Of a stretch of DNA of 64,000 bases, positions 15,504 to 63,311 are shown one piece after another. The notes beneath the pieces are model-generated. The model saw only the letters and a list, made by a program, of their open reading frames with translations. It was not told where the DNA came from and searched no databases. Each line of letters starts with the position of its first letter. The first letter of the stretch is position 1. This DNA is from Escherichia phage vB_EcoM_G2133. The translations under genes and the position numbers were made by a program. Location of the stretch: the sequence record MK327928.1, one strand, 5' to 3'.

Positions 15504-15713
15504 TTAAATTACATGATTATTTATAATAAATTCTCGCGGAACGGTAAAATATCCAATTTTAGTTAATATAACAACATCGCCGTTAATAATTACCGGAGAA
15601 TAATCGTCTGGAGCATTAAATTTCCAATGGGCTCTAATATTATATCCATCAGAACCAAATGCTCGACTAGCCGGTCTCCCGGCTTTTTGCCATGCATAAA
15701 AATCAAATTTCAT
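15504..15713 (-). CDS. hypothetical small protein
   Basis: 69-aa ORF. Confidence 0.4.
   Translation of the reverse strand: MKFDFYAWQKAGRPASRAFGSDGYNIRAHWKFNAPDDYSPVIINGDVVILTKIGYFTVPREFIINNHVI
15518..15525 (-). promoter_or_regulatory. late promoter TATAAATA for soc
   Basis: exact TATAAATA on minus strand about 30 nt upstream of the soc ATG. Confidence 0.55.
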
Positions 15714-15916
15714 TTTGAATGCTCTATAATTAATTTTAAGGCTTCTTCACGCACCAACTTGCCTAATGGTATATGACCAGTTTTAATTGTGTAAGCTTTG
15801 TGGAGCTGATTAGATAAGAGCTCGTATGTGAGCTCTTTGTCATAATTTTTAAATAGCTGGTCAATACGTTTCTTGCGGGCTTTCTTAAGCTGGCGTTTAT
15901 TTAAACGAGCCATCAA
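15710..15916 (-). CDS. hypothetical basic small protein
   Basis: 68-aa ORF. Confidence 0.4.
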   Translation of the reverse strand: MMARLNKRQLKKARKKRIDQLFKNYDKELTYELLSNQLHKAYTIKTGHIPLGKLVREEALKLIIEHSK

Positions 15917-16431
15917 TAACCTCGGTCTTGACGAGCGAAGTTTTCAGCATTTTTCAGATAATAAAGTTTAAAGATTTCTTCAGCTGACATTCCAAGAGCA
16001 ATGAATTTATTCATGAAAAAGTGAAATTGGTCAATCAGTTCAAATTTAATTTCAAGCTGATCTTCAGGAGATAAGTCTTGAATTTTCTTGGATTGCATTT
16101 CAGAATAACGTTTCTTCCAAGGTTTCCATACGGCAGAAGCTTCTTTTTCACCATTACTCATACCACCAAGAGAAGTATATAGCTCGCGAGTTTCGTCTGC
16201 GATATAATCGTCTTGGTTTCGCAGCCAAGCAAGAACTTCTCCTGCGGTTTCAAGTGAATCAGGATGACGATTTGTTTCTGGTTTATCATTAGCCAAACGA
16301 ATCTGTAAATGCCGCTGCATATCAAGCATAACCTGCAGTGGGTCAATATTGTGCATAATATTCTCAGCATATGCACGATTTGCTTTATCAACACCTTCGA
16401 TCAAATGAGCACATTCATTAAAGTGAGCCAT
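15913..16431 (-). CDS. 56: dCTPase/dUTPase gp56 (MazG-like); start at ATG 16431
   Basis: 172 aa from MAHFNECAHLIEG with AAGGA ribosome-binding site; track ORF extends upstream through the promoter. Confidence 0.7.
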   Translation of the reverse strand: MAHFNECAHLIEGVDKANRAYAENIMHNIDPLQVMLDMQRHLQIRLANDKPETNRHPDSLETAGEVLAWLRNQDDYIADETRELYTSLGGMSNGEKEASAVWKPWKKRYSEMQSKKIQDLSPEDQLEIKFELIDQFHFFMNKFIALGMSAEEIFKLYYLKNAENFARQDRGY

Positions 16432-16465
16432 TATTTTTCCTTTCAATTCATGGGTTAGTAGATTA

Positions 16466-16490
16466 ATTATACAATAAATATATAAAGCAA
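16466..16490 (-). promoter_or_regulatory. MotA-dependent middle promoter for gene 56
   Basis: minus strand TTGCTTTA, 11-bp spacer, TATAAT. Confidence 0.45.
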
Positions 16491-16502
16491 TAAGGAGGAC
16501 AT

Positions 16503-16703
16503 ATGGTACAAAAATTAATGGCACTTGTTAATGCCATCAAAGGTAATAAAAAGCGTATAGCTTTTACTATTTCTGCTATGGTAGGAATTTTACTCTGGAA
16601 CTTTATTTTATCACCTGTTGCAATTGCGCATGGTATTAATATTCCAGTAGTTACTCTTGATACATTCGTAGATTTAGCATTTGCTTTAGTTGGGTTAATT
16701 TAA
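16503..16703 (+). CDS. small hydrophobic protein (two predicted transmembrane segments) on the plus strand
   Basis: 66-aa ORF in the gp56/gp61 intergenic gap; AAGGAGG 5 nt upstream of ATG. Confidence 0.45.
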   Translation: MVQKLMALVNAIKGNKKRIAFTISAMVGILLWNFILSPVAIAHGINIPVVTLDTFVDLAFALVGLI

Positions 16704-17728
16704 ATCTTAGCATATTTAGATAGCCGCATTTTAGCCATCAACCCCTGAGCAATATTATTTTTCATATATTCCATAATTTGTTCAGGGGTTGCACCTTCCT
16801 TTCTAATCATATCATTAACATCTTTTGATTTCCAGGGAGATTTATCCCAAAACATAACCCTTTCTCCTGCATCAACTAATTTAGTCATTCGCTTAATAGT
16901 GTCAGGATGACGAGGTTCATTATCTAAAACCCACACGCGTCTATCTTTAAATGGAACAACTTCTAGGTCTAATTGACCACCAGTAATAGCTATACCATTT
17001 TCAATAAAAAGTGAATCTATAGGTCCTTCTAGAACATATACATCACCATCTTTAACTCGTTCAACTCCATAGATTTTTGTTGCTTCAGGATAAGCTTTGA
17101 TGGTGATATATTTTTGAGGAGCATCTTTCTTTAATGCACGTCCTTGAAACGACTCAGCTTTTCCGTTAGCATTATAAATTGGAATAATAAGACGAGGCTC
17201 AGAAATTTCCTTTTTGTATGTTCCTGGTGCTATGCTATTAACTAATTTAGGCCATTCGGTTGTAAACCAAAGATATTTCCATTTATCTTTTGGAATACAA
17301 CGAGCTTTTACGTATTTTATAATTGGATGGTCTTCCGCCAGTTTATCTAATCTAACACATGACGGAAGAGATTTAATTATTTTCTTCTCAGGTTGTTTAG
17401 GAAGTTCTTTAGGTTTTTCTACTGGACGACTTTTACCTTTTTCTTTTCTTATTTCAAAGATATACTCACGATATAAATCAGGTTCAAACTCCTTTAAATA
17501 TATTCCGATTGGTGCATGATAGTTACAGTTATAACAATGAATATTTCCTTCATTATTATCACCATAATACCATCCACGAGCTTTATTCTGGTCGGTTTTT
17601 GAATCTCCACAAACAGGGCATCTAAACCGTAATTTAAAAGTTGAACTATTATTTACTTGTGTGAATTTAGGTAAATGAGCTAATGCACGGTATGCAAACT
17701 CATTATCAATCCAAGGTATTGATGACAT
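16700..17728 (-). CDS. 61: DNA primase gp61
   Basis: 342 aa; N-terminal zinc ribbon CPVCGDS...CYNC; Toprim-like core. Confidence 0.85.
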   Translation of the reverse strand: MSSIPWIDNEFAYRALAHLPKFTQVNNSSTFKLRFRCPVCGDSKTDQNKARGWYYGDNNEGNIHCYNCNYHAPIGIYLKEFEPDLYREYIFEIRKEKGKSRPVEKPKELPKQPEKKIIKSLPSCVRLDKLAEDHPIIKYVKARCIPKDKWKYLWFTTEWPKLVNSIAPGTYKKEISEPRLIIPIYNANGKAESFQGRALKKDAPQKYITIKAYPEATKIYGVERVKDGDVYVLEGPIDSLFIENGIAITGGQLDLEVVPFKDRRVWVLDNEPRHPDTIKRMTKLVDAGERVMFWDKSPWKSKDVNDMIRKEGATPEQIMEYMKNNIAQGLMAKMRLSKYAKI

Positions 17729-17896: not shown

Positions 17897-18523
17897 TTAA
17901 CCTCTATTCATAAAAGCATTAAAAATTTGGTCATCAATAGAAACATTTACTTTAGACTGTTTTTCAGATGGCAATTCATATCCACATATTACAATTTTAT
18001 GATCAATATCAAAATACACAGAAGCAATATGATTAATGATGTTTTCAGTAAAGTCTAAATCAACATCAATATCTTTTTGACCACAGCCCAAAGGATAAAT
18101 AATGCGAGTAATTCGATTATCTTTAACAAAGATTCCACCGACATACTCTGTGCTGCGTTTAAAGTCTACACGCCGACGAAATGAAAAATATTCAGGCTCT
18201 TTATGAGCTCGGCTCATAGGGCACAACGAATAACTAGAATAAGAGATGTCAAATCCTACGCCTTCAATATGAACTAAATTGTCATGATTAAACCAATTAT
18301 AATCATATGCCAAGTCCATTAGACTGTCATATGTGAAAGACACCGGATTAACATCATTGGTCATAAGCATATAATTAGCAACTGCTATAATTTCATTATT
18401 TTTAACGAATACAAACCGTGATTGATGCGAATGACCTGGACCTGCGTTTTCACGATTAATGATATAACACTGGGCACCTTTATATTTGTACGTGTCTTTA
18501 CACTTGTGCATTTGATAAAGCAT
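17897..18523 (-). CDS. hypothetical protein
   Basis: 208-aa ORF. Confidence 0.5.
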   Translation of the reverse strand: MLYQMHKCKDTYKYKGAQCYIINRENAGPGHSHQSRFVFVKNNEIIAVANYMLMTNDVNPVSFTYDSLMDLAYDYNWFNHDNLVHIEGVGFDISYSSYSLCPMSRAHKEPEYFSFRRRVDFKRSTEYVGGIFVKDNRITRIIYPLGCGQKDIDVDLDFTENIINHIASVYFDIDHKIVICGYELPSEKQSKVNVSIDDQIFNAFMNRG

Positions 18524-40173: not shown

Positions 40174-40348
40174 GGAGTTTAATTTCCTTAGCAACTGAAC
40201 TAAATGCAGCACGATCACAAATCATGCGTTTATGTAACTTGAGTATAATATAGCAAACTTCAAAACTATTTACATGAGTAACACGAACAGCATTACCATT
40301 AATGAGATAATACTGTCCCTTTTTAATTTCTTTATCAACCATAACCAT
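40166..40348 (-). CDS. hypothetical small protein
   Basis: 60-aa ORF directly downstream of early promoter 40378..40407. Confidence 0.4.
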   Translation of the reverse strand: MVMVDKEIKKGQYYLINGNAVRVTHVNSFEVCYIILKLHKRMICDRAAFSSVAKEIKLHG

Positions 40349-40377
40349 ATCAATTCCTCAAAGGTAATTCATATGTT

Positions 40378-40407
40378 AATAATACCACGGTTTGAACTTG
40401 TTGTAAA
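40378..40407 (-). promoter_or_regulatory. early promoter (-10 TATATT)
   Basis: GTTTAC (40407..40402), 18-bp spacer, gtggTATATT. Confidence 0.4.
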
Positions 40408-40489
40408 CAACTTTGTGAAAAATATTTTAGGGAATGACAAGAAGGGAACGATAGCTTAGAATGGTAATATACAGAATGTAAGAAAGAAA

Positions 40490-40502
40490 GGCCCAGAGGG
40501 CC
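40490..40502 (-). terminator. short G/C stem-loop downstream of nrdH
   Basis: ggccc-aga-gggcc. Confidence 0.3.
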
Positions 40503-40506
40503 CGCC

Positions 40507-43900: not shown

Positions 43901-43941
43901 AATAAACCCTTACCTTAAATAGATAAGGGTATTTATTATTT

Positions 43942-57648: not shown

Positions 57649-57656
57649 TATTTATA
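57649..57656 (-). promoter_or_regulatory. late promoter TATAAATA
   Basis: exact TATAAATA on minus strand about 30 nt upstream of ATG 57623. Confidence 0.4.
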
Positions 57657-61660: not shown

Positions 61661-62022
61661 TACAAACTCTCAGTAAAGGTACGAGCGATAACGTCGCGCT
61701 GCTGTTCCGGAGTCAGAGAGTTAAAGCGAACTGCATAACCGGATACACGGATGGTCAGCTGCGGATATTTTTCCGGATGCTTAACTGCATCTTCCAGAGT
61801 TTCACGACGCAGAACGTTAACGTTCAGGTGTTGACCACCTTCAATTTTAACTGTAGGCTGTTGCTCAATTTCAATTTCACGGGCATGCAAACCGTAGAAA
61901 ATTTCTGGGTCTACAAAAGAGTCCTCTTTAAAGGTTTTAGAGACAATAATTCGTGCTTGAATACCATCTTCAAAATAAATAGTACCTTTATGTGTGCCTT
62001 CAAGAATTTGATATGCTTTCAT
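61660..62022 (-). CDS. autonomous glycyl-radical cofactor (GrcA/YfiD-like)
   Basis: 120 aa; C-terminal 60 aa [59 protein letters not shown] with RVSGY glycine-radical motif. Confidence 0.7.
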
Positions 62023-63008: not shown

Positions 63009-63311
63009 TTATTTACCTTTAATTACTTTAGCTGCTTCGATAGCCGCTTGCTGAAGGTCATCCATAGACATACCGAATTTAGAAGCAAAGTTATCAATTT
63101 TCTTTTCGACAGCATTCAAAGGCTTGGCCTGTTTACCTTCATTAGCGCCAGGAAGAGCGAGAATACGCTCTTTGTCAATATAAAGGCTTACAAGTTTCTT
63201 ACGGTCTTTATCGGACAAATCATGAAATGAATGGGCCTTTTTATTTATAGCGGCTTCTAATTTACCTGCACTCACTCGCGCTTCAGTAATAAATTCTTGA
63301 TATGTTTTCAT
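63009..63311 (-). CDS. ipII: internal protein II (packaged in capsid)
   Basis: 100 aa; N-terminal capsid targeting sequence MKTYQEFITEA. Confidence 0.75.
   Translation of the reverse strand: MKTYQEFITEARVSAGKLEAAINKKAHSFHDLSDKDRKKLVSLYIDKERILALPGANEGKQAKPLNAVEKKIDNFASKFGMSMDDLQQAAIEAAKVIKGK

Follow-up and report, generated by a model that had tools for sequence, protein, structure and literature searches.

A conserved small membrane protein gene between genes 56 and 61 of T-even phages and its possible relation to holins

Genes 56 and 61 of Escherichia phage vB_EcoM_G2133 (sequence record MK327928.1) are separated by a short interval in which a 66-residue open reading frame (ORF) lies on the plus strand. 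The stretch of this genome analysed here, 64,000 nucleotides (nt) long and hereafter called the window, had been read from its letters alone (hereafter the original prediction), and the ORF was singled out as its only plus-strand gene candidate, a hydrophobic reading frame convergent with primase in a gap of about 265 base pairs (bp). The coordinates of the ORF were confirmed, the interval between genes 56 and 61 measures 268 bp, and the stop codons of the ORF and the primase gene overlap by 4 nt. The genes at the locus are as follows.

16503..16703, plus strand: coding sequence of a small membrane protein, ATG start, 66 residues, MVQKLMALVNAIKGNKKRIAFTISAMVGILLWNFILSPVAIAHGINIPVVTLDTFVDLAFALVGLI
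15913..16431, minus strand: gene 56 (dCTPase/dUTPase), divergent neighbour of the ORF
16700..17728, minus strand: gene 61 (DNA primase), convergent with the ORF, the stop codons sharing 4 nt (16700-16703)

Minus-strand ORFs of at least 45 residues span the entire window apart from four gaps of at least 150 bp. A credible plus-strand ORF was found in just one of these gaps, 16525-16699, and none in the other three, so that the ORF is indeed the sole plus-strand candidate. The 1.9 kb flanking it is 98.5% identical to Tequatrovirus genomes of the RB14/RB18/R5505 type. Taken together, the observation behind the original prediction is confirmed, and a genuine plus-strand gene for a small hydrophobic protein is supported.

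The gene is already known as a hypothetical protein of T4-like phages, under the names RB32ORF030w and RB69ORF029w and as PHROG 2024. The match to PHROG 2024 is full length (E = 1.4e-31, residues 2-66 on profile positions 1-65 of 65), and the RB14 protein ACP30675.1, annotated as RB32ORF030w and 'similar to RB69ORF029w', is 100% identical to the window protein. These records describe the same gene as the window ORF and carry no function, promoter or family link. The elements added here are a late-promoter inference, a link to a holin family and a gap in the T4 reference annotation. Nothing specific to the ORF was found in the literature, which was searched for its names, for ribosome profiling and small ORFs of T4, and for start sites and late promoters of this phage.

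Conservation and selection show that the ORF is a real protein-coding gene, a conclusion about which we have very little doubt. By tblastn, 696 phage records carry a homologue, with at least 80% of the protein covered in 686. Homologues are at least 90% identical in Tequatrovirus, compared with about 50-55% in Mosigvirus and 38% in Kanagawavirus. In a word-indexed search, every relative returned for the window protein exceeded 90% identity, and Escherichia coli genomes gave no DNA match to the ORF. The original prediction had named related phages that share the flanks and lack the ORF as a possible counter-observation; the opposite was seen. By megablast, the 3' end of gene 61 is present in 502 records and the ORF likewise in 502, with an equal organism breakdown, and no Tequatrovirus with the gene 61 flank and without the ORF was found in the searched collection. 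The plus-strand position abutting gene 61 is shared by the window, RB14, T4, Mosigvirus, Kanagawavirus, Moonvirus Merlin and Jiaodavirus Mineola, and the location is constant in at least six Tevenvirinae genera.

Variable sites are distributed over the three codon positions as 9/2/12 in nine Tequatrovirus sequences and as 37/13/47 in five sequences of the Mosigvirus group. The ratio of nonsynonymous to synonymous substitution rates (dN/dS) in the frame of the ORF is 0.20 and 0.37 in these two sets and is the lowest among the six frames. Trp32, Asn33, Pro38, Gly44, Pro48 and Gly64 are invariant in eleven sequences from six genera, and the OE5505 homologue carries an in-frame deletion of 9 nt. 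In three T4-like contigs of IMG/VR (L011:2495..2901, L012 and L015), tandem paralogues lie between genes 56 and 61; one copy is similar to the T4/Mosigvirus proteins and the other to those of Kanagawavirus, and the second overlaps the gene 61 stop codon. The DNA of the ORF (16503-16703) is only 90-95% identical in 156 of the 502 Tequatrovirus records, whereas the 3' end of the primase gene (16710-17010) falls in this range in none, all being at least 95% identical. The protein nevertheless stays at least 90% identical. This excess of DNA divergence hints at faster evolution or at recombination of the small gene. A 61-residue homologue (P0034) has many residues changed to Val, Phe or Ile (e.g. 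MVFVNVIKGNKKCIVFIIFVMVG...), and looks less like a natural variant than like an artefact of reads that are rich in errors or heavily C-to-T-altered.

The ORF is intact in the T4 reference genome (NC_000866.4, 17738..17938, plus strand; L003:3239..3439), where it has its own ribosome-binding site AAAGGAGG and 64 of the 66 residues are identical. It sits there in the 309-bp gap between dam and gene 61, which bears no annotation; it is likewise unannotated in a second T4 record (KJ477684), and no NCBI accession was found for the exact T4 protein sequence. The gene is universal in Tequatrovirus and kept in several Tevenvirinae genera, yet it is absent from the T4 reference annotation. Screens based on annotated T4 genes consequently omit the ORF.

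The original prediction had placed dam near this interval in T4 and had seen no methyltransferase-like ORF in the window. The dam gene does lie there in T4, and for Dam itself the absence holds, since tblastn with T4 Dam on the window gave a best E of 0.8 and no homologue. T4 carries an insertion of about 900 bp (dam and flanks) between gene 56 and the ORF, replacing window positions 16472-16491. In OE5505 and OES_C-3 this spot is occupied by dam together with a 186-residue ORF, and in fPS-90 by a homing endonuclease. The dam-less arrangement of the window is found in 395 of 532 matching records, about three quarters. In T4-type genomes dam is a cassette inserted upstream of the ORF, and its absence here is a common polymorphism and not an anomaly. 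Positions 16472-16491 are an insertion hot spot, unoccupied in the window (compared also with L003, L018, L021 and L022), at which dam, homing endonucleases and other cargo enter between the promoter region of the ORF and gene 56. In each arrangement of the hot spot, the minus-strand gene downstream keeps a middle-promoter-like site and the ORF keeps its ATAAATA box.

The upstream region and the first codons of the ORF hold four signals.

16492..16498, plus strand: Shine-Dalgarno sequence AAGGAGG, 4 nt before the ATG
16473..16480, plus strand: candidate T4-type late promoter AATAAATA, agreeing with TATAAATA at 7 of 8 positions, A(-13) variant
16466..16489, minus strand: middle promoter of gene 56, TGCTTTA (reverse complement of 16483-16489), 11-nt spacer, TATAAT (reverse complement of 16466-16471)
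16505..16540, minus strand: intrinsic-terminator-like hairpin downstream of gene 61, 11-bp stem, loop of 4 nt, UUUUUGU

The ribosome-binding site is as the original prediction had described it, except that its distance to the ATG is 4 nt and not 5 nt. GGAG(G) is retained at the same place in the T4, Mosigvirus, Kanagawavirus, Moonvirus and Jiaodavirus homologues, within otherwise unrelated upstream sequence. A scan for sigma-70 promoters gave no plus-strand promoter for the ORF, and the number of promoters found was not above chance.

T4 late promoters have TATAAATA at -13 to -6; the commonest variant, with A in place of T at -13, is seen in 9 of the 50 listed (PMC2988020). From the candidate at 16473-16480, RNA would start near 16486-16487. 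The nATAAATA motif lies 19-40 nt before the ATG in eight of nine lineage contexts (about 25 nt in the window) and is joined to the ribosome-binding site by non-homologous spacers of 7-13 nt. Its form is AATAAATA in the window and in Mosigvirus, GATAAATA in T4, CATAAATA in L011 and L015, and TATAAATA in Kanagawavirus; Mineola has two copies. ATAAATA occurs seven times in the window, against 41 ± 6 times in shuffled sequences, an about six-fold depletion that suggests selection against stray late promoters. One of the seven copies is the candidate itself, and another precedes the start of the late gene soc by 31 nt. The remaining sites are at 18095-18101 and 61975-61981 on the plus strand and at 43930-43936, 57649-57655 and 63242-63248 on the minus strand. 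The two plus-strand sites are within minus-strand genes, with no obvious downstream ORF or ribosome-binding site, and could drive late antisense RNAs.

All early and middle transcripts of T4 have the polarity opposite to that of the ORF (PMC2988020; PMC1524935). All early and middle genes that flank the ORF are on the other strand, and the ORF has the clockwise polarity of T4-type late genes. From the late-promoter motif and this polarity, we infer late, gp55-dependent transcription, which on these sequence features is likely.

The gap does hold, on the minus strand, the middle promoter of gene 56 that had been placed there; in Yersinia phage fPS-90 the homologue of this site bears the annotation 'predicted middle promoter'. 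We take the TGCTTTA/TATAAT pair to be MotA-dependent, on the MotA-box consensus and spacing. This predicted promoter overlaps the candidate late promoter on the plus strand. The hairpin downstream of gene 61 has a folding energy of -12.4 kcal/mol (z = -3.6), corresponds to an annotated terminator in fPS-90, and is contained in codons 2-13 of the ORF. Such double use of these codons is specific to Tequatrovirus. Since the hairpin is weaker in T4 (8-bp stem) and absent in the other genera, it cannot account for the conservation of the ORF.

The N-terminus of the protein is basic, with five Lys/Arg and no acidic residues among residues 1-18 (charge +5). Two hydrophobic segments follow, residues 19-42 (mean Kyte-Doolittle value 2.0) and residues 48-66 (1.86), the latter with two Asp. 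The AlphaFold2 model (predicted local distance difference test score, pLDDT, 77) has helices at residues 2-12, 16-42 and 52-63. The final helix is short, and in other genera (Merlin and Mineola) it is too polar for a full membrane span; a single transmembrane segment (21-41) was predicted for RB69ORF029w (Nolan et al. 2006). Of the two hydrophobic helices in the original prediction, the second is doubtful as a full membrane span in the family as a whole. We consider that the proteins would be oriented N-in, with a single long transmembrane helix that a conserved turn connects to a short C-terminal helix, which may dip back into the membrane. A Foldseek search of the model against viral structures returned family members only, and no relatives were found among solved structures. 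Scans of the T-even protein with Pfam and NCBIfam gave no match, nor did PADLOC with this protein and its prophage neighbours described below. When 1.84 billion representatives were searched exhaustively with HMMER, the only matches were small T4-like homologues and three long repeat proteins (P0032, P0036 and P0037); the latter three are regarded as spurious because of score inflation by multiple repeats.

Outside the T4-like phages, a pattern scan of viral contigs found a 92-residue Yersinia prophage protein (L016). Its last 45 residues match PHROG 2024 (E = 8e-13), and over its whole length it matches PF11351 (GTA_holin_3TM) at exactly the gathering score, 24.8 bits. The protein belongs to a family of about 96 residues that is widespread in Enterobacterales, one member being present on 941 contigs, and 25 of 31 members match PF11351 at E < 0.1. 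A profile search with the family gave only its own members among the matches listed. The entire membrane core of the T-even protein is matched by the C-terminal 45 residues of the family (e.g. P0076, 'MULTISPECIES: hypothetical protein [Enterobacteriaceae]'), with W-N-(F/Y), P, G, LP..PL(D/E) and G at the same positions, and the N-terminal amphipathic helix is similar. Unlike the T-even protein, the prophage proteins are about 30 residues longer and have a polar linker, QN.ITLEETR..(S/T)WR. Their genes are the last ones of siphovirus-like prophages, and both a phage lysozyme and a DUF2730-like protein with transmembrane and coiled-coil segments are encoded no more than about 2 kb away.

In L023:4670..6291 and L026:4681..6291, the family gene is the last of a four-gene block that encodes a GIY-YIG-like protein of 149 residues and then proteins of 189, 103 and 96 residues. 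The block is usually beside the prophage lysozyme. At one Klebsiella-type locus (L026), it stands without tail or lysozyme genes, beside a KAP nucleoside triphosphatase (NTPase) and an EcoRII-type restriction-modification system. The 189- and 103-residue neighbours were considered as spanins and rejected, both being soluble and having neither a lipobox nor a transmembrane segment.

The consensus of the 96-residue family reached, by tblastn, a 170-residue protein of Rhodobacter phage RC1, which scores 24.2 bits with PF11351, just under the threshold, and is encoded between the lysozyme and a DUF2730 protein. Its relatives in RcWaterboi, RcapMu, phiM5, StopSmel, POI1126, OH and Atu_ph08 overlap or abut the endolysin gene in the tblastn table. 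In the six loci of RC1 relatives that were examined (RcapMu excluded), the gene is immediately downstream of the endolysin gene, and two are annotated as holin. Such endolysin-adjacent proteins of about 170 residues occur in Rhodobacter, Sinorhizobium, Ochrobactrum and Agrobacterium phages. The core of the T-even protein, WN(F/Y)..P......G..LP..PL(D/E), also ends both the 96-residue and the 170-residue proteins.

Alignments of the T4-like family (A5), the 96-residue prophage family (A2) and the endolysin-adjacent RC1-type family (A4) were compared with hhalign. A5 matches A2 with 97.8% probability (E = 8.5e-13), A2 matches A4 with 93.7% (E = 2e-7), and A5 compared directly with A4 reaches 78% (E = 1.7e-5); the W-N and LP..P.(D/E) motifs are aligned in register in all three comparisons. 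As a control, the core columns of A4 were permuted 150 times with their composition preserved. The permuted alignments scored 12.3 ± 1.6 (maximum 21.3) and 12.7 ± 2.9 (maximum 24.1), against observed scores of 33.8 and 46.7, which none of the 150 reached, and the reversed RC1-type alignment scored 10.9 and 12.0. Since these scores are far below the observed ones, the similarity is more than one of hydrophobic composition. Common ancestry of the T-even protein with a PF11351-like holin core is therefore, to judge from the alignments, probable.

The resemblance to the PF11351-type holins (the release holin of RcGTA and the proteins of RC1, RcapMu, RcWaterboi and phiM5) lies in the transmembrane-turn-helix core and in the W-N and P..P.(D/E) motifs, which are in register, all being small phage membrane proteins. 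The T-even protein differs in that the N-terminal region of about 100 residues, the AWRP motif, the charged tail and the adjoining endolysin gene are missing, and in that a T-even phage already has a different holin. It begins about 18 residues before the transmembrane segment and ends at the hydrophobic partner helix. Neither the window protein nor four other T4-like members match PF11351, the gathering threshold of 24.8 bits not being reached. Since this threshold and two architectural features are lacking, we do not file the T-even protein as a member of PF11351.

On these grounds, we propose the following role. The clockwise-strand ORF would be transcribed late by gp55-RNA polymerase from AATAAATA (16473-16480) and translated from its strong ribosome-binding site. 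In the inserted product, a basic amphipathic helix (residues 2-12, within the +5 region) would remain cytoplasmic, a long transmembrane helix (about 16-42) would carry the W32-N33 motif and Pro38, and a turn (Gly44 and Pro48) would lead into the short hydrophobic C-terminal helix (52-63). The protein would then be a bare membrane hairpin, a minimal derivative of a PF11351-like holin, and may act late in the inner membrane as an accessory holin-like protein, by self-association or by binding to the lysis machinery, so that permeability or the timing of lysis is altered. A late accessory membrane role, as a co-holin, an antiholin-like partner or a depolariser, seems to be the most economical reading of the sequence data. 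The composite view, a genuine T-even gene for a late, holin-like accessory protein of the inner membrane, is the one that we favour, tentatively and without calling it probable. Its functional part taken separately, a role in lysis or permeability, appears doubtful.

T-even phages possess the holin T, and T4 t mutants fail to lyse. Since this is so, the protein is not a sufficient holin, and a main or stand-alone holin role is unlikely. Several other observations also weigh against a late holin-like role. The direct comparison of A5 with A4 reached no more than 78% probability, and the T-even protein matches nothing in Pfam even at E ≤ 1. The longer relatives have an N-terminal region, the (A)WRP motif and a charged C-terminal tail, all of which the T-even protein lacks, and its gene neighbours are genes 56 and 61, with no endolysin or spanin gene as in a lysis cassette. 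On the expression side, the late-promoter hidden Markov model of Nolan et al. lists no plus-strand site near the RB69 homologue, and Moonvirus Merlin has just ATTAAATA upstream. Some proteins of PF11351 have been supported as holins by experiment, and TeaA of phage ICP1 has been assigned to the family by remote homology and has demonstrated holin activity (Hays and Seed, PMC7182436). For ICP1 ORF137-139, no Pfam match was found, hhalign against the prophage family was null, and similarity of the T-even protein to TeaA went undetected; TeaA as a bridge to PF11351 was dropped as direct evidence after these results.

A bolder form of the proposal is that the ORF is a second, overlooked T-even gene of the holin family, expressed late and contributing to the setting or execution of lysis; its product might depolarise the membrane as a co-holin, or it might be a membrane-embedded partner of T or oppose T. 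This form, which we regard as unlikely, includes a relic or retooled holin of the PF11351 type, the family to which TeaA of the ICP1 lysis-inhibition system has been assigned. The window protein and T4 holin T with its antiholins RI and RIII are all phage-encoded membrane or membrane-associated proteins, and T is late and N-in, as the window protein would be. T differs in having 218 residues, one transmembrane segment, a large periplasmic domain and a distant locus. No sequence relationship to T was seen, the exhaustive HMMER search having given only small T4-like homologues, and a functional interplay with T, RI or RIII is speculation. Class II holins and pinholins such as S68 of phage 21 are similar in size and in their two-helix hydrophobic layout. 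Pinholins differ in their charged C-terminus, the window protein being hydrophobic at its C-terminus and charged at its N-terminus.

A small membrane protein with a role apart from lysis, whose similarity to holins reflects a shared membrane hairpin only, is nearly as likely as a late accessory role. Examples would be superinfection exclusion, guarding against a membrane-acting host defence, or a membrane anchor for primase or replication. The gene is always tied to the 3' end of gene 61 and not to lysis genes, T-even phages already have the holin T, and only the hairpin core is common to the relatives. The prophage relative at the cargo end points in the same direction, as at L026, where it stands beside the KAP NTPase and the restriction-modification system with no lysozyme. 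On the other hand, PADLOC recognised neither the protein nor its prophage neighbours, the genes of the longer relatives follow the endolysin gene, where a holin is classically found, and the proposed late expression is ill-suited to exclusion functions such as Imm and Sp, which are early.

Two further explanations place the importance of the locus in its nucleic acid. A late plus-strand transcript antisense to gene 61 might help to shut off primase late in infection, with the ORF as a secondary feature. The candidate late promoter points at gene 61, whose stop codon overlaps that of the ORF, a search of 15800-17200 gave no terminator-like site on the plus strand, and T4 transcribes both strands at some sites at different times (PMC2988020). 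Selection acts at the amino-acid level, however, as seen in the codon-position pattern, the dN/dS values, and homologues of 33-55% identity that keep W-N, P and G invariant. The strong ribosome-binding site is also conserved, and a GC-rich hairpin between the ORF and gene 61 in Jiaodavirus Mineola would halt such a transcript. We therefore consider RNA as the important product improbable, while an antisense effect on primase could exist alongside either protein role. The remaining explanation is a chance ORF in a regulatory spacer that is conserved for the gene 61 terminator and the gene 56 middle promoter (in T4, near oriA). The terminator hairpin within codons 2-13, the middle promoter just upstream and the missing annotation in the T4 reference genome are in its favour. 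But outside Tequatrovirus the hairpin is gone and the ORF persists, the DNA is more diverged than that of gene 61 with the protein still conserved, and dN/dS is lowest in the ORF's own frame. The in-frame deletion, the tandem paralogues and the homologous bacterial proteins also speak for a protein, and the chance-ORF explanation is strongly disfavoured, by far the least probable of those considered.

Phage lysis and lysis inhibition have T4 as their reference system, and the T4 gene list is widely regarded as complete. If the protein affects membrane integrity or lysis timing, it would be an extra component in a textbook pathway. If it has no such effect, it would be a clean case of a minimal membrane hairpin retained from a holin scaffold for another use.

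Elsewhere in the window, a GC-rich perfect hairpin (GGCCCAGAGGGCC) at 40488-40505, in a non-coding gap between two minus-strand genes, is probably a terminator. The plus-strand ORF at this gap (40274..40459) has no ribosome-binding site and overlaps a minus-strand ORF. Two small minus-strand ORFs of 69 and 68 residues occupy 15504..15916, the second being RB14ncORF029c in the RB14 annotation. In T4 the homing endonuclease gene segF stands there instead, between soc and gene 56, and phage Pu-Krd-SF3 (L017) carries a different homing endonuclease at this spot.

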